A stretch of 63,518 nt of DNA, counting the filler, from Bonamia ostreae (taxonomy: Eukaryota), in NCBI GenBank assembly GCA_040357525.1. It is 56 parts of 56 records of this genome, joined end to end, with 100 filler letters (N's around TTAATTAATTAA, not from the genome) between each part and the next. Parts side by side here need not be neighbours in the genome. Positions count along the whole stretch, not along the records: positions 5,706 to 6,745 come from JBDODL010002920.1; 55 more parts are not named here. The stretch is one strand, 5' to 3'. This document shows positions 4,311-52,207 of this stretch, in pieces (position 1 is the stretch's first letter; every line of letters begins with the position of its first letter). The notes under the pieces are model-generated. The model did not search any database and was not told where the DNA came from. It saw nothing but the letters and a program-made list of their open reading frames with translations. The translations under genes and the position numbers were made by a program.

Positions 4311-4630
4311 TTTAAGTGCAAATTATATTGAAGTGTCTAAACACATTCGCAATAAAATATTATAAGAAAAACGAAATATCCATATTAAAGCTTTAAACAG
4401 AGATTCAATGCTTATGAATATTGCACATTGTATTGGATAAAAGCATTCACATGTAATCAGATCGCNNNNNNNNNNNNNNNNNNNNNNNNNNNNNNNNNNN
4501 NNNNNNNNNTTAATTAATTAANNNNNNNNNNNNNNNNNNNNNNNNNNNNNNNNNNNNNNNNNNNNGTTTTCCAAAGAACAATTTAAGAAACGATTCTGCA
4601 ATCCTTAAAAATCCAATTTAACGCAAAAAG

Positions 4631-5303
4631 ATGATGAGAGAATACAAATCCTTCCCAAATAAAGACGAAGACGTTTCTAAAGTGCTTGATTTTTACTTCA
4701 GTCTTTGTTCCGTAGAATTAACAGCCCGCGACGCAGCCGTTCTCTCCGCTTCTCTCGCAAACGGTTTGCAAAAAATCATTTCCAAATTTAGGGGGAGTTT
4801 GCCCAATAACAAATGACGCTGTTCTGGAATCCATCAACGTTCGGAATTGCTTATCGCAAATGCTCTCATGTTCGATTTCTGAAAAAAATAAAAAGGCGGA
4901 ATGTACGATTACAGCGGCGAATGGGCTTTCAGCGTCGGCCTCCCCGCAAAATCGGGCGTGAGCGGGTGTGTGCTCATTGTCATCCCCAACAAAATGGGAA
5001 TCGCCGTTTATTCTCCGCCGCTCGACAAAATTGGCAATTCGGTGAAAGGACTCGCCTTCGCCGAACGACTTTCGGAGCAATTTTCCATACACCATTTAGA
5101 CAGTTTCCACGCGAAAGGAGGTCGATTGGAGCGAGCGGTGCGAATGGAAACATCGCGGCGGAGACAGCATCGTCTGAACATCTCGAATTTGCTGGTTTCG
5201 GCTTCGAGCGGCGATTTAGACGAAATAAAAAGATTGGTCTCGATCGGCGTCAATCCGTTCGAGCCCGGGATCGATGGGAGAACTGCTTTGCATTTAGCTG
5301 CTT
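4631..5303 (+). CDS. GLS: Glutaminase with C-terminal ankyrin repeat (kidney-type architecture), partial, protist
   Basis: LDFYFSLCSVE..ASLANG/GVCPIT..VRNCLSQMLS/CGMYDYSGEWAFSVGLPAKSGVSG..SPPLDKIGNSVKG, then ankyrin DGRTALHLAA; introns 4764-4791 (28 nt) and 4870-4895 (26 nt) restore the conserved frame. Confidence 0.93.
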
Positions 5304-5309
5304 GTTTAT

Positions 5310-5605
5310 TGCGAATTTTTATTGATTTTTTTTATTTTCAGAATTTATTGCCAATTTTTTATTGCGATTTTTATTGATTATTTTTTATTTACAATTTTTA
5401 TTGCAACTTTTATTGCAATTTTTATTTATTTTTTTATTGCAATTTTTATTGATTATTTTTATTTGCAATTTTTATTGTTTTTTTTTGCAAATTTTTATTG
5501 ATTATTTTTTATTTGCAATTTTTATTGATTTTTTATTGCGATTTTTTATTTGCAATTTTTTATTGATTTTTTATTGCGATTTTTATTGATTTTTTATTGT
5601 GATTT
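5310..5605. repeat. AT-rich minisatellite inside the glutaminase intron
   Basis: Degenerate TTTTTATTG(CAA/CGA/A)TT units start just after the GT donor at 5304 and run to the contig end. Confidence 0.85.
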
Positions 5606-5705: not shown

Positions 5706-6670
5706 GACAACATCATTAAATTCCAAACTTTGTCTGCGGCATATGAAGTGCCTATAACCAACTCTGATTTTCCATTGTAGCTGTTTACACTTTGCACAAA
5801 GCTGTTTATGTTTTCTGGTTCTACCTCGTAGACAAAATAGTCAACATACCTGTCAAAGTCTGCGAATCTTGTTAAATTTGTTTTTAAGTATCAAAGTGAT
5901 AAATCTAGAAATTATATTTAGCTGAAAATTTCTTACAGGGATTCGTCAAAATCGTTTCCTTTGACAGTAACAGAAATAAATCGTGTTCCTGTAATCAATT
6001 CTCTTATGGCTTTAACACAATCCTTCAATGCGTCGGCATCACTAAAAATCGCGATTAAATGTTTTTACCTGCTAGACGAGTAAACAATGTCAACGCCTCC
6101 AAAATAACTTTTCATCATCATACTTTTTGTCATAGCAACACACGTACTTAAAATGAAGTTTAGAACGAAGCAAGATTGCCGGAACTTGACGATGCCGCGG
6201 AAAAGTCATTGGAGAACATCACGTAATTGCTCGATTCCACTTTTGACTCATCAATCATGAATGCGGTACCAATATCAGCTATCGCGAATTGGAAGCCGTT
6301 TTCGAATCCCTTATAAACTGCATCAGCGCTGTCAGCTTTGAATCCAATTCTGTTGTAGTACGCTTTTTAGTAAATTTGTTGAGTAACCTATTTCACAGGG
6401 AGGGCAGAGTCTGGTTCCTTGCCAACAACCATCCACTTTGTGAACAGATTTTATCGTTCCGGGGAACGGAGTGCAAATGGAGTTGACATGTTGGCATTGT
6501 CCACAGCTTCTGACTTTGTCAGCGGGATTATCGCTGTAATTATGGTCATAACACCATTCGTCGCAGGGCTCATCTAGAAAGAATGAAAGGATGGTTGTTT
6601 AAAAACAGATAGTTTGGCTGAACACAAACGATAAAAGAATCATCATTTTAAAAAGATAATTTGCTTTCAT
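5706..6670 (-). CDS. Secreted protein: signal peptide + Cys-rich domain + degenerate GH18 (chitinase-like) barrel; 3'-partial; not in ORF track
   Basis: Five GT-AG introns (6606-6574, 6387-6363, 6166-6147, 6068-6042, 5936-5868) give one open frame: MKANYLFKMMILLSFVFSQ..CDEWC..CGQC..C..C..CPPC..STCVAMTKSMMMKSYFGGVDIVYSSSSDADALKDCVKAIRELITGTRFISVTV..FDRYVDYFVY..KSELVIGTSY. Confidence 0.6.
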
Positions 6671-7089
6671 TTTTTCGTATTTGTGGTTATGTTTTTAAAT
6701 TTTTTTGCTTAATATCTTTTTTTTAGTTGAAAATTTTAACAGTAANNNNNNNNNNNNNNNNNNNNNNNNNNNNNNNNNNNNNNNNNNNNTTAATTAATTA
6801 ANNNNNNNNNNNNNNNNNNNNNNNNNNNNNNNNNNNNNNNNNNNNAAATAATTTGGCAATTTTATCAGATTTGTTCATTTTGCCAAAATTTGCGAAAAAT
6901 AAAAATTTTAAGAAAAAACAGCCATTATCAACGAGGTCGAATATAAAATGAGGTTGAAACGGCTTTTTAAAACTAGAAATAACGCAAAATTATTTCACGA
7001 CATTAGATTATAATTATTACATTAATTTTCGATTGCAAAAATAATTTTTGGCTTAGTTGACTTGCACTCTGAAATAAACTATTTGAATT

Positions 7090-7788: not shown

Positions 7789-8153
7789 TTCGATTTGGTT
7801 TTTAAATTAAAATTGTTTTTCTGAATTGCTAAAAATCGATTTTTGTAAAATTAAAATTGTTTTTCCGAATTGCCAAAAATCGATTNNNNNNNNNNNNNNN
7901 NNNNNNNNNNNNNNNNNNNNNNNNNNNNNTTAATTAATTAANNNNNNNNNNNNNNNNNNNNNNNNNNNNNNNNNNNNNNNNNNNNTTTATTTTTTAAGAC
8001 GAATTTTTATTTTTTAAGACGAATTTATATTTTTTAAGACTAACTTTAATTTTTATAACGAAATTTAATTTTTAAGACAAATTTTTATTTTTTGACGAAA
8101 TTTAATAATTCTGAAACACAAACATAATTTTTATCGAAAAAATTTCCAAAACC

Positions 8154-8639
8154 AAAATATATTTTGGCAAAATCAGAGACACCGATAGCGGGAAGCAAAA
8201 CATTTGAGAAACTCGTTAGACAAACGATATTGACGAGAAGATGCAAAACAGAATGATGGGAGAACATGTGAGTTATCAAAGTGTGCGGGTTTCTAGCAAA
8301 AACATGCGATTGGAGCGTAAAATGTTTTACCATTATCTTTTCAAGCGGTTTGTAAATTTTTGAAAATTGCCAAAAACAGTGCACGAACACGTTAATACCG
8401 ATAATCGCCCCTAAAAAGGGGACAGCGCTGTGCTCAAAGAAAATTTTTTTCGATTCTTCGTCATTTTTGAATCTGTTGTTAAATTTTGAATATTCCACAA
8501 AAGGATTTCTTATCCAATCGCTCAATATAAAGGCGCTCCCAAAAAATAACGAAGTTTTTGCGAAAAAACCAAATTTTCTAAATTTTGGCGCAAATTTGTT
8601 CGGATTTTTAAAATGTTTCGCAAACTTTGTTAAACGCAT
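8154..8639 (-). CDS. Mitochondrial rhomboid protease (PARL/Pcp1-like), first exon
   Basis: Basic, acid-free presequence MRLTKFAKHFK..; INVFVHCFWQ..HFT..PHTLITHMFSHHSVLHLLVN rhomboid L1/TM2 motif; runs into a repeat-filled intron. Confidence 0.85.
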
Positions 8640-8790
8640 TTTTAGGCGGTTTTTTTGTTAATAAAACAATTTAAAAAATTAGTCTTTTTTGCAGTTTGTT
8701 GTGAAAACATTTTATGGGTAAATTATAGAATCACGATTACTTAGTCATCAAGCAAATTATATAGAATCAGTTATATTAATTAAAGCTTAA

Positions 8791-10948: not shown

Positions 10949-11442
10949 CTAAAATGAATAGTTCATGTATGTATTTACGAAATGTGTTCAACATTTAACT
11001 TAATACGTCATGATTATAGTAAAAACTGTCCTAATGGGACTTCTACTCCTAATGGATGTTATTATTTGAAAGTGATTTGAAATAATGTAAATCAATAAAT
11101 ATTCGCAAGATATTTATTTTCCTATAATATTGTGTAACAATGTCTGTCTGTGAATTAAAGTAGTTGCAAATAAATACATCAAAGTTTACTCACGAAATAG
11201 AGTACATTGCACTCTTGAATAGTAAGTTATCTACATGCAGTATTGAACCCTTAACCCATTTTTTAAAAATACATGGAAAATAAATTTACAATTCATATTC
11301 CACTCNNNNNNNNNNNNNNNNNNNNNNNNNNNNNNNNNNNNNNNNNNNNTTAATTAATTAANNNNNNNNNNNNNNNNNNNNNNNNNNNNNNNNNNNNNNN
11401 NNNNNTCGACGAAAAGTCAATTGCTGAAAAGAAAAAAAAAAC

Positions 11443-12445
11443 CGATTAAGAAATGAAAAAGGCAATCCTTTTCTTCCTCCGCCCTCAGAAAGCGGATTCT
11501 GTGTCGCGAAAACGCGGAAACCGTCCGCACAGCTCACGTTTTCGCCGATTTCTGGTACAAAAACGCATTTCCGATGGTCCAAAACGGAATTGAGTCCCTC
11601 CAAAACTTGTTGCGGCGCCAAATTCAATTCGTCCAGCATAACCCAATCGCCGTTCCGCATCGCTTTTAAGAAGACGCCATCTTCCCAACAGAACTTGTCG
11701 CCGCGAGGGAGGTCGCATCCGATCAAGTCCATGATATCGGTGTGTTCGGACAAATTTATTCGAACCAATTTGTTTTTCGTTAATTTTGCGAGCGCTGAGA
11801 TCGTCGCCGTTTTGCCGACGCCGGGACTGCCTTCGATCAAAATGGCCTTGTCTAGTTGCATTGCTCGTAATATGTTGAACATGTTTTCTTTTACTGTTTG
11901 GCTTTCTGTGTAGAAATTTTGCTCTTTTGTTATAAATTTTCGATTTTTAGATTTTTTTGTTTTTGATTTTATCTTTTTTGTAAATTTGTTATTTTTTGTT
12001 TAAATTTTATGGAATTTTTCAATTTTTGTCTTTTTATTTTTTCTAAATTTTTCAATTTTATAAAAATTCGATTTTATTATTTTGACGAAATTGAAATTTA
12101 TGTTTTTGTTTTTTTTTTGAAATATTTGTTATTTTTCGAGTAAATTTGATAAAATTTGTAAATTTTAATATTCGAAACGTTTTTTATTATTGTCGGGATT
12201 TTGACTGTCGCCGACAAATTTTTGCGATAAGTTGACTAAACTGAGAGAACATTTAGCTTTTTTGATATAAAAAGGATCAATTCCAATTAAATCGCGATTT
12301 TCAAAGATTTCCTTTTTGTCAAAACTTTGAATTTTAATATCAGATTTTAGCAAATTTGAGAATCCAAAATCTTTGAAAAAAATTTGGCATTCTTCAAAAT
12401 TCAAATTTGTTCCGTTTAAAAGCAATTTTAGGCCTTCAACAAAAA
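11443..12445 (-). CDS. MDN1: Midasin/Rea1 AAA+ ATPase, internal exons
   Basis: ILRAMQLDKAILIEGSPGVGKT, RINLSEHTDIMDLIG, WVMLDELNLAPQQVLEGLN, FATQNPLSEGGGRKGLP.SFLNR; upstream exon with GIDPFYIKK separated by a ~300-nt intron. Confidence 0.93.
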
Positions 12446-12545: not shown

Positions 12546-13552
12546 ATTAGCCGCAAATACTTTTGTTTGTGCTCCTTAAAAATGTCTTTGACCTCCAAAA
12601 CAATCTTTTTGGCGTTGTGACGTTTGTTGAAGACGGAAAATTCCGTGTTCACAAGAAAGATCCAACACATTTGATGAGGATATTCCATGAACACTCTCAA
12701 AGCAATTTTTCTTATAAACTGTTCAGACGATCGATTTTCGGTCGCCAGACGAGAAACGATCTGTGGCATTACAGAAAACCATTGGAACTCGCTGATTTCT
12801 TGGCACAACTTGTTCAACAAATTTTCTGTCTTCGCATTCAGTTCGATGGCGCCGTCAACGCAATATTGAAAGTACATAAAAAGTATTTTCGGGAGAGCGT
12901 TGAACAAGTACTTGTTACCGTTCCTCTTATCAATTGTTTGAATAAATTATTGATTTTAACAAAGTACTTTTAACTGATAACAACAATTTTAAAAAATTGT
13001 CAAAGTGCTTAAAATCGATTTGAAAAATCGCAAACAAGGGAAAGCATAAGAAATAAAATCGATTGGTACATCAGCTCCCGAACCAAAGAACGTTCACTGC
13101 TATCTCTTATCTTCAGTTCCAATAAATAATTGTAATAATTCCCGAGCAAATAACGCGTTTTGTCGAGTAACTTTGTGTCACCGGGTTCCTTTTCAGAGAT
13201 GTGCAGCAAACTCAAAATTTCGTTCGATTTTTTTGCTTTGAAAGCAATCGACCATTCCGCTAACAACATTCTCGCTTTGCTCAGACAAACTTCGGTCCCT
13301 TTAAGCGCTTCCAAATTTTTGCTTTCAACTTTTTCTGTTTCCTTTTCTACAAAATTTTGCAGAATTTGAATTGCTTCGAATTTGCGTTTCTTCGCTTTCA
13401 TCAGTTTGGCTTTTTCCAGAAACATGAGATTTTCCGGGACGCCCATTAGTTTGGCGCTCATCAAAGCGGAATCTGCCACAGTCAAAACATTTGATTTTCT
13501 GGCTTCTTTTGCCACTTTCAGCCAGCTCAAACCCTCTTCTTCGACCATCCCA
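12546..13552 (-). CDS. ATR: PIKK kinase FAT region, most like ATR/Mec1, internal exons
   Basis: WLKVAKEARK..ALMSA..EKAKL; intron 13035-12926 joins LMLSL/RNGNKYLFNALPKILFMY; WFSVMPQIVSRL and YPHQMCW motifs. Confidence 0.75.
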
Positions 13553-16159
13553 TTCTTTTATTTAAAAGGCGAAATTTAAAATTTGNNNNNNNNNNNNNNN
13601 NNNNNNNNNNNNNNNNNNNNNNNNNNNNNTTAATTAATTAANNNNNNNNNNNNNNNNNNNNNNNNNNNNNNNNNNNNNNNNNNNNTTCCATATCCACTGC
13701 AACTGACCTTAGAAATATAGTTTTGAATATAATTGTAATGTTGACCAACCTGAACTTAAAACTTTATTCTTCATTAACAATTCTAATTGATTAGCCTATT
13801 AGTCAAAGTCAGTGTTACACCATAACATCAATGCACTCATATATGCACCTATTTAACTTTTACAAAGAATTGCAATTTAAACTGTATTTCAGAAATGAAA
13901 TAGACAATAGTTTTCTTTAAAATCCCATCTCATTTCGTCAATGTTTTTCACTTTGCATATTCTTTATGTATTCTGATTTACTTAATAACAAAAAAACAAA
14001 CATTTTATATCATAACAGATTACTTTGTGTTTGTAAAAATGATATTTCATGTATAATGCTATGGGTTGAAAAGTTGAATCTAGCAGATTTGTGACTGTTA
14101 ATACATGTATCAAAATGTATGTTTTGAAACACTGATGCCCCTTTAACCCTAAAGGTCAAGGTAAAAAAAGTTAGGTACCAAAAGAAAGGTCTTGTTATAA
14201 ATAATACATGTGAAATATAGAGCCTAAGTAAATTAACTACCAAAAAGTTATGCTGAAGGTTAAAGTTTCAAAAGTAGGTTAAACCCTAAGGTTAATAGGT
14301 CATAGATTTTAAGAAAGGACTTATTAAGAGGAATACACATGTGATTTATGGAAGCCCTATCACGAACCATTCTACAGTTAGAGCGTTTGCTTACAGACAG
14401 ATGGACCAGAAACTATATGCCCCAAAGTCTGGCATAAAAAGGAGGGAAGCTTCTCCTTCCTAATTATTCTAGACTCCTAAAAAGAATGTATTGCATTGCA
14501 ATGTATCAATTCTTATGGCCATTCATGCCTATATGTATTTTATGACAATTTCATCAATAAAATTACTCTTAATTTTATGATTTTGAACACAATGATGTTA
14601 ACAAAATATATATTAAAAGGTTATGTCAAAACAGATCAATGTTTTATAATCTAAAATTATATGGTGGTGGTGGTGAGGTGGGGGTGTGGAAGAGAGTATT
14701 TTCCCTAGGTACATACATCTGCACTNNNNNNNNNNNNNNNNNNNNNNNNNNNNNNNNNNNNNNNNNNNNTTAATTAATTAANNNNNNNNNNNNNNNNNNN
14801 NNNNNNNNNNNNNNNNNNNNNNNNNTTCGTTACTGGAAGAAGGAAGTCACAAATCCTACAGTTCCTATTACCCTCAGCCCAATACATGCAAAATTGTGGT
14901 ACACATTGGTCGTTTAATATTTGAGAATAAGTTCTAAATGTTAAAGCAAGGCCGACGATAGACAAATCACAGTAAAGAAACAGCAAACAAAGGGGGGACG
15001 ATAATGATAATGGTTGAACGATAACACATTGCGAGTGAAACTCAGTTTTCGACCGCTAATGAATGATGGATATAATATTCCCTCTTTGAATACAAAAATT
15101 AAATGTTCCATAATTTTAAATACTTTATGTTCACCTTCAGTAGAAGTGCAGCTATTCACTACGATACATCNNNNNNNNNNTTAATTTTCGATTCTCCACT
15201 GAGCAGTTCGATTCAATATGAAAAAAAAATAAAGTATGTTTACAATATCTATTTATTTCCTTTAACTTTTAAACAACGTCTCTGATTGGCTACAAAATAT
15301 ACAATCAACACTTAGATCACTGATGCAAACAAGAATGAGTAGTAATTAGATAAACCAGGGCTAAACTATCCTTAACAGTCGCTTTGGAATATTTGGTTTT
15401 AGATAGGTTGTAAAAGATAAAAAAAAAAAAACCCATTCCCAATGATTTCTGTAATATTTGAATAAGTGATTAAACAGGTTTTTAGTCAAATTGCTTTTAA
15501 AGATTTGTATGAAATGTATTGATTCTATGATATCATGTATATGATTTCTAAAAGCTATTCTAAATCTAAGGTAACTAAAATATCAATAAAATGTGACCTT
15601 CAAATATTATCTAAAGTGTTTGATGTTGACTGTGTTTGAAAACAAATGCGTGTTGAATAACAAAGTTAATATTAAAGAACATTGAGCTTGTTGATCGAAT
15701 TGAAACAACCTAATCGAAAGGCTTCAAGTGAAATCGATTCAAATTGAAAAGTTTGTGTAATGTTAACACTCTAACCTTCAAGTCTTTTAATTTCTCTTTC
15801 TTGATCTCTTTCCAGTTTTTGTATTATATCTGTATAAAATATGTAAAAAAAAACAAAAAAAAACANNNNNNNNNNNNNNNNNNNNNNNNNNNNNNNNNNN
15901 NNNNNNNNNTTAATTAATTAANNNNNNNNNNNNNNNNNNNNNNNNNNNNNNNNNNNNNNNNNNNNTGATGTTTCAGATATACTAGGACACGGTTTAATAG
16001 CTCGTCTTTTTATGGTATTATCTTTACTTTTTATTTTTATTTTTGTCTTTGGCATTTTTTCTATAACAAAAATTTAGATTTTGAGATTTTCTTTAAATTG
16101 AGTTTAAACGTTTTTGATATTTCTCTTTGTTATTTTTCCAAAGTTTTCGAGAATGTCAA

Positions 16160-38712: not shown

Positions 38713-38937
38713 CAAAAATATTTTTAACGGAAATGTAAATTTGCAATTTTTGTAACTTGAAAGCAATTACAAAAATATTTTTAACGGAAATGTAAATTTG
38801 CAATTTTTGTAACTTGAAAGCAATTACAAAAATATTTTTAACGGAAATGTAAATTTGCAATTTTTGTAACTTGAAAGCAATTACAAAAATATTTTTAACG
38901 GAAATGTAAATTTGCAATTTTTGTAACTTGAAAGCAA
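38713..38937. repeat. Perfect 57-nt tandem repeat, ~4 copies, in the PP1 intron
   Basis: ACAAAAATATTTTTAACGGAAATGTAAATTTGCAATTTTTGTAACTTGAAAGCAATT repeated to the contig end. Confidence 0.95.
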
Positions 38938-38948
38938 AAAATATAAAC

Positions 38949-39481
38949 GTGCAAAAAATTTTCCTTTCGATCAAAGCGCAAATCGGCAAACAATTGAAAC
39001 ACTCCACAAAAGTTCTCCAAACGCGAACGTCAAAGCGTTCACAACACTCTTTTTTGAAGCCATAATATCTGCTAATCGAACTGCTCTCATGATTGCCCCT
39101 TATCAGAAAAAAGTTGTTCGGATACCTTATCTTCAAAGCCAGAAGAATCGAAATGGTTTCGATGCTCTGAACTCCTCTGTCGACGTAGTCTCCCAGAAAA
39201 AGATAATTGTGTTCCGGCGGGAATCCTTGACTTTTGAACATTCGGAGCACGTCTTCGAACTGTCCATGGACATCTCCGACGATTTTGAGGGGAGAGGCAA
39301 GTTCTAGTAACGTCGGTTCAGCCATAAAAAGTTTTTCAGATTTTTCCGTCAGAAAGAAAAGGTCGTCTTCAGTCAAATTTTCTCGGAGGATGACGCGGCG
39401 GTTGTCTAAATCTAAATCTTTTGCGGATAAAAGTTTTTGAAGAATGGCCGAAGCGCGTTTTTCGTTGGGGTTGAGAGGCAT
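38949..39481 (-). CDS. Ser/Thr phosphatase, PP1-like catalytic subunit, first exon
   Basis: [44 protein letters not shown] donor at 38948 just before the expected HGG. Confidence 0.93.
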
Positions 39482-41562
39482 TTCGGTTTGTTATTATTAA
39501 AATTTTGATAAGTTTTTCCGGATTTCTGTTATATGTTATTTGCTAATTTTTTTACAATTAAAAGTGTTTTCGAAAAACAAATGGAATAACAATTAAATGG
39601 AAGATAATAATTAAATCTTTCTAAATTTTTTAAAATTAAATTTATAAAATTCTCCGTCTTGTCTACGATGATTCGAGAAGGCTTATTTATTAAATTTTTA
39701 TGTTTAATATTTCTTTTTGGTTAATTCAAACAAATCGGTTATTTTNNNNNNNNNNNNNNNNNNNNNNNNNNNNNNNNNNNNNNNNNNNNTTAATTAATTA
39801 ANNNNNNNNNNNNNNNNNNNNNNNNNNNNNNNNNNNNNNNNNNNNATTCGCCATCTGAAAGTATGTTAAAATGAACTTTGCTCTAATTGAAAAACCATTG
39901 GTAATCCTACCAAATTGATAACTCATAGTTCTTCTAAAGAATATACAATTAATAGAAGGGCAAACATGAACCCCTTAACACACCAAAGATGGGTCAAGGG
40001 CCTGGGAGGAGTACACATCTCCTATTAACTAATCATATCCTTTGCAAATCGTCCATCTTCATCAGGTCAACGAAGAAATTCATAGTCAAAATCAGTATGT
40101 AAAGAATGGTATAAAACACGTCAGACAGCCTTCGACCTTACGACAAATTTGCAAATAATATCACATCGTAATTTTAAAATTTACTGTATGGGTATAAATA
40201 CAAGAACTACAAGTTGTAATGTTGTAATTTTTAAATATTACAGTATGACAATAATCCCATTATAACAACTGCGGAATTTCCGAAATACTGACTTCATATA
40301 TAGTGCAATATTTAAACTATATCCTTCAACACCCCTCCATAAAAAACCCAACAACGAAGTTTGGGGTTATATTGTTTTCACTTCGTCCGTCTGCCTATAG
40401 AGATATTTTATCGAGATATTTTCTTGGAAGCTGTTGATTTACATTTCACCAAATCTTATGGAAATGTATACTACGTAAACCTGTGCATTTGTTATTTTAG
40501 ACTAATGTGTTCAATTTTAAGAAAGTTATGACCATTTGTTGTTATTTTCCATATTTCTGTGTATTCTGTCAGTACCCCCCCCCCTCCAACAACTTTTTGG
40601 GGTGTAATGATTTCATGAAGTCTCTTTATCTGTCTTATAGTTTTCATCCACCCATCTATTATTGGGGCAATTGATAGATTTCTGCTAGCCGTCCTTGTGT
40701 TTGTCTGTTTTTCGTTCATCCATACAATTTCTCGTTTCTCACAAATTCCTATATGAATAAACCACGCGGAGGTATTTGTCCCATTAAGCCATGCCTAATT
40801 TGTTTTATAAAGAAATGGGGAAATTATCACAGTTTTGTGAGGACTTTTTAGCAGAATAAGCTTTCTTTATGCCTACAGGNNNNNNNNNNNNNNNNNNNNN
40901 NNNNNNNNNNNNNNNNNNNNNNNTTAATTAATTAANNNNNNNNNNNNNNNNNNNNNNNNNNNNNNNNNNNNNNNNNNNNAAATAACTCAAAATTTTCTGT
41001 TTTTCCGGCCATTTTTTCTTTCTGGCGGAACCGATGTGTTTGCATTTTCAGACTGTTGATGCCTTGTGTGTCGATTTCCATTTGTTCTAATCGGATTTTC
41101 TGTTTGCAATATATTGGATTGTGATAAAGGTGAGCTTAAAGAATGATTTGATGTTTATTCATATTAATAATTTTTAATGATTTTGTTTATAATGGATATT
41201 TGATGTGCTTTTATTAAACAAAATTTGTAAAAATGGGCACTTTCAATTTTGATTTTTATTATATTTTTCATTTAGTTTTCCCAATTAACAATTTTTTTAA
41301 TTTCCGAGGAATTAAAATGTCGGAATATTTGAAAGTTTTAAATTCTGAAGATTTAAAAATAATATTTTTACTATCTCGAGCAACTTACTCATATCAAAAT
41401 CATCAATGACGCCAAGTCAATTGATAAAAATGTTTTTGGTTTCTGTTGGCGCCATTAGTAAAAATTTTTGATCGCTTTTAATTTTTTTGAAACTATTTTT
41501 TATTGTGCTTAATTTTAACGTGAATTTTATTGTTATAAATATAGACAACAGATGTCATTTAC

Positions 41563-44379: not shown

Positions 44380-45228
44380 CAGCTCCAGCAACAATTCGAC
44401 CATGAATCTAGTAATATGAATTTTTTCAATGCGCCATCTCCCCCAGACCTCAATTCCCGCCCTCTTTCAAATCCTCAACCAATTTCTTCGCAAAACTCGC
44501 CATTCCCAAATTCAATGATATTCCAATTCTCTTCGACACGAAATCAAAACAATCCGACGCCATCAAACGCTCAATTTCAAAACAATCCGACGTCATCAAA
44601 CGCTCAATTTCAAAACAATCCGACGTCATCAAACGCTCAATATCAAAGCCATCCGTCTGGCCAAAGTTTCTTCCGTCAAACGACCTTTTCGTCTCCGTCC
44701 GGGGCGCCCATTTCATACTCGATCTCGACACGCAATTTTGGGGGCCCTATCCAAACGACGAACTCGACAACGTCGACGGGGGTACACCCCGATTTCTACG
44801 AACTCTTCAACACAGTGTTCAATCAAAGGACCGACGGAAATAACAGAAACAATGAATTTTCGTTTCCAAACTTGTTCGAAGGCAATTTTGAGCGTATTTT
44901 CGAGTACTTTCGGTCGGTTGGCGCTCGCGACGGAAATCAAATGCAGCCGGCGACAGAACACGACATCGAAAATTTGCCTTCGTTCGTTGTAGACAAAAAG
45001 ATGGCTGAGAGTTTGACTTCGCAAAAATGTGTTTTTTGCATGGAGCAAATGGTAGAAAAGGAGGAAGTGAGGCGATTGCCGTGTTTGCATGTTTTCCACA
45101 AGAAAGAAATCGATCAATGGCTAAAGATCAACAAAGTGTGCCCAGTTTGTAAAGCGGCGATCGATTCTTCCGACCGAAGTCAAGAGCAGCAGCGAGGACA
45201 AGGACAGACCGGACAAAGGCAAAACTGA
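44380..45228 (+). CDS. RING-H2-type E3 ligase (RNF115/126-like layout) with variant Zn ligand; frame open to contig start
   Basis: PATEHDIENLP..CVFCMEQM..VRRLPCLHVFHKKEIDQWL..CPVC; low-complexity N-terminus with 3x 33-nt repeat (NNPTSSNAQFQ). Confidence 0.9.
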   Translation, partial: QLQQQFDHESSNMNFFNAPSPPDLNSRPLSNPQPISSQNSPFPNSMIFQFSSTRNQNNPTPSNAQFQNNPTSSNAQFQNNPTSSNAQYQSHPSGQSFFRQTTFSSPSGAPISYSISTRNFGGPIQTTNSTTSTGVHPDFYELFNTVFNQRTDGNNRNNEFSFPNLFEGNFERIFEYFRSVGARDGNQMQPATEHDIENLPSFVVDKKMAESLTSQKCVFCMEQMVEKEEVRRLPCLHVFHKKEIDQWLKINKVCPVCKAAIDSSDRSQEQQRGQGQTGQRQN

Positions 45229-51260: not shown

Positions 51261-52207
51261 TCATCCAAAAACTTGTACGCGCACTTTACTCTCCAAGTTG
51301 TCCCCGAATTTGAAATTTTCCAACAACCTCAAAATGAACCAGTGCGGAACGCGGGGATTGCCTTCTTTCCTCAAATGAACCATCACTGCTTCGACCAACG
51401 CCACGAACACCGACTTGAGCACAAAAATTCGACTCGGACTCAACTCGACAGCGTGGCGCGCAACAGCCGCAACCATTTTGGCCAGTTCCTCGCTGTTTCT
51501 GAGACCAAAGCTCCCTCCGTTTTTCGTTTGGTCCGTCTCAGACAAATCTAGTACGACTTTGATTAGCTTGCAAACAAATCTTCTGTCTGACAGTCTCTTC
51601 AGCAAATTCTCGCTCGTCGCAAATTCTGCTTCGCCTCCAAACCGTTTAATAGATTTCTGCCATTCTATTAAGAGCATTTTGGCTTCCGCTCTATCTTCAA
51701 TTTTGGAAACTTCCAAATCTGTTTTTTCCCGCTCTTTCGGTTTTTGTTCTTTTGGCTTTGTCTTCACTTCTTTGTGCAAAGAAAACAATTTCATGTCTTT
51801 CTCAGATGTGCCAGAATTGTCTTTTTTTGCGTATTCCGGTAAATTTGGGTTTTCCGAATCAGTTTTTGGCGATTTGGATTCTGCCGAGAGTCGGCTGTAA
51901 AGTCGTTCGATTTTGATAAAGTATTCAAAAGCGGCTCCGTCGATATTATTTCTTTGGTACTTCCCCTTTGCGATATCACAGAAAACAGAGAAGATCTTGG
52001 GGAAGTCATCTTTCTCGAGTTTTTTCTCTGCGACGACCAGAATGTTGAAAAAGCACGCGGCAAAGTAGACGGACCGCATGTGCAGCAATGGTCTTTTACT
52101 TGTCATCGATTGGGAAAAGTAAGAGTCGACAAGGGAGAGGTCCAAAAGCTTGTTTTGGATCATTGCGATGAATATGTTCAGATCAAACTTGTTGTAGTCT
52201 TTTTCTT
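51261..52207 (-). CDS. Uncharacterised helical protein, long exon (~300 aa), protist
   Basis: Long open frame with protist-like composition; no motif recognised. Confidence 0.6.

Follow-up and report, generated by a model that had tools for sequence, protein, structure and literature searches.

Within a 63,518-nucleotide stretch of DNA from Bonamia ostreae (assembly GCA_040357525.1), referred to here as the window, a gene interrupted by five introns was identified on the minus strand of a single contig. The reading that we favor, with confidence about evenly balanced, is that it encodes a secreted pseudo-chitinase, which would be non-enzymatic and would bind its partner mainly through a module of eight cysteines (Cys) placed in front of a barrel of glycoside hydrolase family 18 (GH18) descent. 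The window is a chain of contigs of approximately 1 kb (59 sequence segments with N spacers between them), and the sequence adjoining in the window is not the genomic context of the gene. The contig of the gene occupies window positions 5706-6745 (JBDODL010002920.1; C2919 in the B. ostreae genome contig set, G000, an assembly that is fragmented and intron-rich).

Gene structure and paralogue

The original prediction had proposed that the gene is hidden from the open reading frame (ORF) track by its five introns. This was borne out, as all the peptides that it quoted lie on the minus strand, no stop-to-stop ORF of at least 100 amino acids (aa) overlaps 5706-6670, and the introns match those of a paralogue. 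The spliced model starts with ATG at 6670 and comprises six exons with 263 codons and no stop, and its five GT-AG introns measure 33, 25, 20, 27, and 69 nucleotides (nt; phases 1, 1, 2, 2, and 2). Donors starting with GTT were found in three of the five introns of the window copy and in four of the five in the paralogue. For intron 2, the donor used was preferred over the one at 6396 because the preceding 10 nt are identical in both copies. Position 5706, which had been taken as the gene end, is the contig end; the gene runs past the end of the 1-kb contig, so that strand b8, approximately 26 aa, and the stop codon are missing (b1 to b8 denote the barrel strands), and the tail of exon 6 had no match elsewhere in G000. 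The model of the window copy is well supported as a prediction from sequence, and its features are as follows.

6607..6670, minus strand: exon 1, start codon and signal-peptide-like leader (by hydropathy), 21 codons
6574..6606, minus strand: intron 1, 33 nt, phase 1, GTTTT donor; the paralogue has it at this position too (18 nt)
6388..6573, minus strand: exon 2, symmetrical (phase 1-1), 8-Cys domain with two conserved Trp and one conserved N-glycosylation sequon
6363..6387, minus strand: intron 2, 25 nt, phase 1; 21 nt in the paralogue
6167..6362, minus strand: exon 3, presumably the first third of the barrel (b1-b3), predicted only
6147..6166, minus strand: intron 3, 20 nt, phase 2; 19 nt in the paralogue
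6069..6146, minus strand: exon 4, predicted helix 3 (conserved Cys) and strand b4
6077..6100, minus strand: position of the DxxDxDxE motif, G165-x-x-D168-x-V170-x-S172; G-x-x-N-x-N-x-S in the paralogue
6042..6068, minus strand: intron 4, 27 nt, phase 2, containing an in-frame stop; 20 nt in the paralogue, same junction in the public model P0001
5937..6041, minus strand: exon 5, predicted helix 4 (conserved Cys) and strand b5
5868..5936, minus strand: intron 5, 69 nt, phase 2; 26 nt in the paralogue, same junction in P0001
5706..5867, minus strand: exon 6, predicted strands b6 and b7, cut off by the contig end

Intron 5 of the window copy is 43 nt longer than that of the paralogue, in a genome of very short introns.

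The paralogue, for which a search had been proposed, was found as one complete copy of 291 aa at L003:904-1883 (contig G000:C25), 57% identical to the window copy. Its introns of 18, 21, 19, 20, and 26 nt lie at the same codon positions and in the same phases in five of five cases. Only these two copies were detected in G000 by searches with four separate parts of the protein and with P0001, and no tandem cluster of the family surrounds the paralogue on C25. P0001 (MES1918201.1), labelled Bonamia ostreae by NCBI and UniRef, was the only related database protein. It represents the paralogue in the NCBI annotation, begins at Met160, and covers only the last 132 aa, so that everything from the signal peptide through the Cys domain to exon 3 is left out, but it splices introns 4 and 5 exactly as in the present model. 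For the window copy, database searches gave no protein record at all. With no signal peptide in the public paralogue model and no record of the window copy, secretome counts based on such models would miss both.

The two copies differ by a synonymous divergence (dS) of approximately 1.2-1.3, which is near saturation, so that ratios of nonsynonymous to synonymous divergence (dN/dS) are rough. The dN was 0.12 in the Cys exon (exon 2, 77% identity) and 0.38 in the barrel, corresponding to dN/dS of approximately 0.10 and 0.29, respectively. The proportion of nonsynonymous differences (pN) was below that of synonymous differences (pS) in all five exons examined (exons 2-6), including exon 3 (48% identity; pN 0.36, pS 0.70) and exon 6 (pN 0.27, pS 0.57); exon 5 was 65% identical. 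Since the paralogue shares the introns, 57% identity, and pN below pS, the window gene is beyond chance, and the substitution pattern shows both copies to be old, conserved, and, by this measure, under purifying selection. It is very improbable that the C25 paralogue alone works, with the window copy being a recent pseudogene or mis-splicing its enlarged intron 5. This possibility draws on two strong internal AG sites in that intron (5922 and 5905), the use of either of which leads to stops, on the unassembled 3' end, and on the missing protein record, but it is opposed by 263 codons without stop or frameshift despite a dS of approximately 1.3 and by the low pN of exon 6.

Leader and Cys module

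The predicted signal peptide was recovered as a signal-peptide-like leader in both copies, with an 11-residue hydropathy peak of 2.25 in the window copy and 3.05 in the paralogue, based on hydropathy only. An S-Q pair is conserved at the leader end, and hydropathy revealed no transmembrane-like stretch after the leader in either copy. With the leader read in this way, and with no later membrane segment, a conserved sequon, and an even number of Cys, the product is likely a protein of the secretory pathway.

Exon 2 encodes 61 aa with the pattern C-x3-C-x15-C-x2-C-x6-C-x15-C-x6-C-x2-C. The 8 Cys and two Trp of this module are kept in both copies, which also have the N-glycosylation sequon in common. 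A compact, possibly undescribed 8-Cys domain had been predicted, and consistent with this, no relative was found in Pfam, PDB sequences, the ESM Atlas, two word-indexed protein searches, or JGI metagenomes, within the limits set by length windows and search sensitivity. The predicted model of the N-terminal half, which includes the Cys module and exon 3, had a predicted local distance difference test score (pLDDT) of 31 and was unusable. We infer that the Cys residues form disulfides. As judged by divergence between the copies, the module is the most constrained part of the predicted protein; it is also the richest in aromatic residues, and it carries conserved Trp, Tyr, and His.

Barrel fold and probable GH18 ancestry

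The barrel region, defined as the protein minus the leader and the Cys module, has 204 aa in the paralogue. AlphaFold analysis of the C-terminal 132 aa of the paralogue revealed strands at 9-15, 39-45, 63-68, and 114-119 alternating with helices (pLDDT 60, one of five models). The Atlas structure matches of this half were barrel families with template modelling (TM) scores of 0.63-0.75, among them a GH18 cluster at 0.67. At the level of the predicted model, the C-terminal half is thereby shown to consist of beta/alpha-barrel units. Of the GH18 TIM barrel that had been expected, these units were recovered, and GH18 was not ranked first in the fold searches.

Local profiles of fetched bacterial GH18 proteins and of seven control barrel families were scored against the spliced models. 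The best HMMER score was 7.2 bits against a 23-sequence GH18 set, which was reached by 1 of 300 shuffles (3 of 300 for one control). In hhalign, the best score was 33.6 over 84 columns with one GH18 set, at a probability of 39%, compared with a null of 14.1 +/- 2.6 (n=23); the other classical GH18 sets gave 18.7-28.3 and a ChiA-type set 14.1. The controls gave 10.4-16.9, except homocysteine methyltransferase with 24.8 over 38 columns. As calibration, comparison of the same GH18 set with unrelated barrels gave 15.9 and 24.0, and with DUF3142 44.6. One common register over b4-b6, with DGxDxDxE on the FGGVDIVYS/FGGVNINIS segment, is seen in the three GH18 alignments inspected. In the profile alignment, the STCV peptide, previously read as a strand, falls in the helix before b4.

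GH18 strand motifs were also scored as a chain of six motifs in order, in hand-picked windows (five motifs for the window copy). The paralogue scored 41.7, which was reached by none of 1000 shuffles and none of 98 non-GH18 control barrels (maximum 29.4) and lies within the range of 40 held-out true GH18 proteins (36.5-53.6). For the window copy, the score was 29.1, a value that 2 of 1000 shuffles and none of the 98 control barrels attained. The signatures of b4, b5, b6, b7, and b8 were present in order in the hand-picked windows, with b8 from the paralogue alone, and the chain segments overlap four of the modelled strands, with b3 misplaced. The proposed GH18 order of strands and helices therefore stood for b4-b8 and was not recovered for b1-b3, for which 103-351 of 1000 shuffles scored as well. 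No SxGG was found in either copy.

Several of these results, together with others, count against a GH18 origin. In Foldseek, GH18 entries appeared at ranks 25, 38, and 42, none at E <= 0.001, and the fold searches listed many barrel families ahead of GH18. No Pfam family was assigned to P0001 or to single exons, no PF00704 candidate was detected in G000, and no GH18 match was obtained among 1.84 billion representatives by HMMER or among PDB sequences. The top hhalign probability was the 39% given above, an independent GH18 set reached just 18.7, and the homocysteine methyltransferase control exceeded the latter. The chain windows were hand-picked; automatic windows gave a weaker signal (z of 4.0 and 2.5, with one of six GH18 sets), other GH18 sets remained at z <= 2.1, and one control rose to z 2.4. 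The b1-b3 signatures were not significant, and the b8 Trp position lies beyond the contig end in the window copy.

The fold-search ranks and the marginal sequence support would suit a barrel that is not derived from GH18, or an active enzyme of another chemistry, for instance through the Glu after b6 in Y-x-x-E-P-E-N, where the acidic residues are identical in both copies. We consider this unlikely, as none of the seven control families aligned over more than 42 columns and one alone exceeded its null, the motif-chain scores lie in the range of true GH18 proteins, and a few conserved residues weigh little at approximately 52% identity. GH25 lysozyme was rejected as a candidate family, as its hhalign score of 14.1 was at null level (4-sequence profile) and DxE motif tests were negative. 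GH18 is the best-fitting family, and descent of the barrel from it appears probable from these comparisons, with membership unproven. The identification as GH18 made earlier thus keeps its place in rank, but it is accompanied by no Pfam or HMMER match and by an hhalign probability of at most 39%.

Catalytic and groove residues

The b6 Tyr and Asp and the b8 Trp of GH18 proteins line the sugar groove. The DxxDxDxE motif and the role of its Glu in catalysis have been described (PMC12090808). In the register found over b4-b6, the b4 motif is G-x-x-D-x-V-x-S for the window copy and G-x-x-N-x-N-x-S for the paralogue, so that the catalytic Glu is Ser in both. The claimed loss of the catalytic Asp and Glu was therefore confirmed, the last Asp and the Glu, each kept in 42 of 43 bacterial reference GH18 proteins, being replaced in both copies. 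The Met, Tyr, and Asp of b6 (38, 39, and 34 of the 43) are substituted in both copies, with loss of M-x-Y-D, and in the paralogue a Ser stands in place of the b8 Trp (42 of 43); the window copy ends before b8. The barrel has no Trp in the paralogue (204 aa) and one in the window copy, compared with medians of 6-11 in four GH18 sets, whose domains are longer. The b4-b8 span is 105 aa, compared with at least 151 in the 20 of 43 reference GH18 proteins in which it was measurable, and therefore leaves no room for the GH18 insertion domain.

Because the acid/base Glu is Ser, cleavage of chitin by the GH18 mechanism is excluded for the predicted protein, and chito-oligomer binding by the barrel, of the kind retained in MpChi, an inactive GH18 effector of Moniliophthora, is improbable. 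The suggestion that it acts as a lectin of the inactive GH18 type was weakened accordingly, since the complete paralogue has no b8 Trp and its barrel is Trp-free, which makes a classic barrel lectin doubtful. In such a chi-lectin effector, comparable to MpChi or YKL-40, the groove of the inactive GH18 barrel would itself bind chito-oligomers or host glycans and would dampen or trigger haemocyte responses. The GH18-like b4-b8 order, the MpChi precedent (PMC8960721), and three GH19 chitinase genes in the genome, by which the parasite handles N-acetylglucosamine (GlcNAc) polymers, speak for it. However, the replaced b6 and b8 residues, the low Trp count, and the short b4-b8 span described above oppose it, and MpChi is altered at two substitutions only; we regard this explanation as improbable.

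Proposed function

In the pseudo-chitinase reading, the two paralogues would encode a soluble secretory-pathway protein of approximately 290 aa, in which an 8-Cys module, stabilized by disulfides and encoded by a separate exon, is followed by a trimmed (beta/alpha)8 barrel of GH18 chitinase descent. With Glu changed to Ser, the barrel would be unable to hydrolyse chitin by the GH18 mechanism, and with the loss of the b6 Tyr and Asp and, in the complete copy, the b8 Trp, chito-oligomers would probably no longer be held in the groove. The product would most likely be a binding protein without enzyme activity, located outside the parasite cell or in one of its secretory organelles. The Cys module would be the ligand-binding end, with a GlcNAc-type glycan or a protein as ligand, and the barrel would serve as a folded scaffold or a protein-contact surface, after the mosquito protein AgBR1. 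We infer the binding site, the ligand, and any action on oyster haemocytes from these features, and the partner may be a host glycan, a host protein, or the parasite's own coat. A more specific but rather improbable version is that of an adhesin or modulator, secreted and specific to haplosporidians, whose ligand recognition passed from an extremely reduced (approximately 204 aa, Trp-free), dead GH18 barrel to a new class of 8-Cys binding module acquired as one symmetrical exon.

It is quite unlikely that the product instead stays within the parasite (in a secretory granule or lysosome) or in its surface coat, with no direct host action, like Jessie3 of Entamoeba. That protein has the same layout of an N-terminal 8-Cys module and a non-catalytic C-terminal domain (PMC2698119), and the two conserved copies under purifying selection, with no expanded family, would fit such a role. 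Set against this, there is no Pfam homology to the Entamoeba domain, and no chitin synthase match was found in G000, which is weak evidence in a fragmented, intron-rich assembly.

As a secreted pseudo-chitinase, the gene pair is a concrete candidate host-interface factor of Bonamia. If the adhesin or modulator reading is true, it would provide a first molecular candidate for Bonamia engaging oyster haemocytes, and it would indicate that part of the secretome is hidden from annotation by introns of 18-33 nt. Other secreted proteins of this genome may likewise have escaped annotation because of tiny introns.

Literature and genome context

Bonamia is found inside haemocytes within 30 minutes and survives there (PMC5635048), and a comparative-genomics study names proteins with a signal peptide but no annotation as probable factors at the host interface (PMC11069148). 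Among the titles and abstract openings of the matches listed for Bonamia or haplosporids with chitinase, chitin, transcriptome, secretion, or virulence, which cover few subscription papers, none dealt with a protein of this kind. The word chitin does not occur in the main text of PMC11069148; in its four text supplements, a single chitinase orthogroup appears as a gain of Ascetosporea and B. ostreae, and there is no GH18 term. The three GH19 chitinase genes, all above the Pfam cut-off, lie at G000:C67 2209-2922, C72 256-951, and C213 2427-3214, and they are probably the orthogroup gained in Ascetosporea according to that supplement. Two of the GH19 loci (L009 and L010) have signal-like N-termini and a HETT motif, and the Cys module is present in none of the three. 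Beside the C72 gene, L009:1703-2206 is a Gly/Pro-rich repeat that gives the impression of the antisense of a collagen-like gene.

Around the paralogue, the upstream ORF at L003:2-553 (plus strand) is reminiscent of ribosomal protein S5, and the downstream ORF at L003:2279-2998 (minus strand), with CxxC, D-H-I-P-P, and CxxC, of an HNH nuclease. Elsewhere in the window, positions 4566-5605 hold a glutaminase fragment with C-terminal ankyrin repeats; behind it, a long T-rich tandem repeat, degenerate in sequence, reaches the contig end. Fragments on other contigs comprise a rhomboid (8085-8657), an AAA_5 ATPase (11406-11999), a FAT domain (13009-13557), a Ser/Thr phosphatase (38714-39490), a RING finger (44380-45228), and a weak Cnot1 ARM repeat (51261-52205), all six of which are ordinary eukaryotic genes.

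Comparison with known systems

Among bacterial GH18 proteins (PF00704), the likeness lies in the order and pattern of b4-b8 and in the register over b4-b6, and for the compact GH18-like DUF3142 (PF11340) in the register over b5-b6. Unlike both, the Bonamia protein does not have the catalytic and groove residues, and its score against DUF3142 was 11.4, at null level.

The chitinase and Jessie3 of Entamoeba are cyst-wall proteins with one N-terminal chitin-binding 8-Cys domain, and the chitinase is active (PMC2698119). In them, an 8-Cys domain likewise comes first, followed in the chitinase by the chitinase domain and in Jessie3 by one without enzyme activity, but Pfam revealed no sequence link, the Bonamia protein has no low-complexity spacer, and the cyst-wall setting contrasts with the missing chitin synthase match, a weak indication as noted above.

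MpChi and MrChi of Moniliophthora are inactive GH18 effectors, and MpChi, with the changes E167Q and M238L, retains chitin binding (PMC8960721). They resemble the Bonamia protein, which is predicted to be secreted as they are, in their origin from a pathogenic eukaryote and in the mutation of the GH18 catalytic motif, whereas the Bonamia protein is altered at the motif, the b6 Tyr and Asp, and the b8 Trp, and its effector role is only putative.

AgBR1 of Aedes aegypti has a GH18 fold, no catalysis, and no binding of GlcNAc2 or GlcNAc6 (PMC12090808). It is likewise a secreted chitinase-like protein with the catalytic Glu replaced, in its case repurposed at the host interface, but it keeps the insertion domain and a recognizable GH18 sequence, whereas the Bonamia protein has a barrel of approximately 204 aa with no room for an insertion domain, no Pfam match, and an extra 8-Cys module. 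Dead chitinases acting as binding or signalling proteins are already known in insects and fungi, and the principle is not new. What is unusual here is a very small barrel without catalytic and groove residues, fused to an 8-Cys domain that is under strong purifying selection and for which no relative was found. The gene pair is thus probably a new, extreme variant of the dead chitinase-like class.
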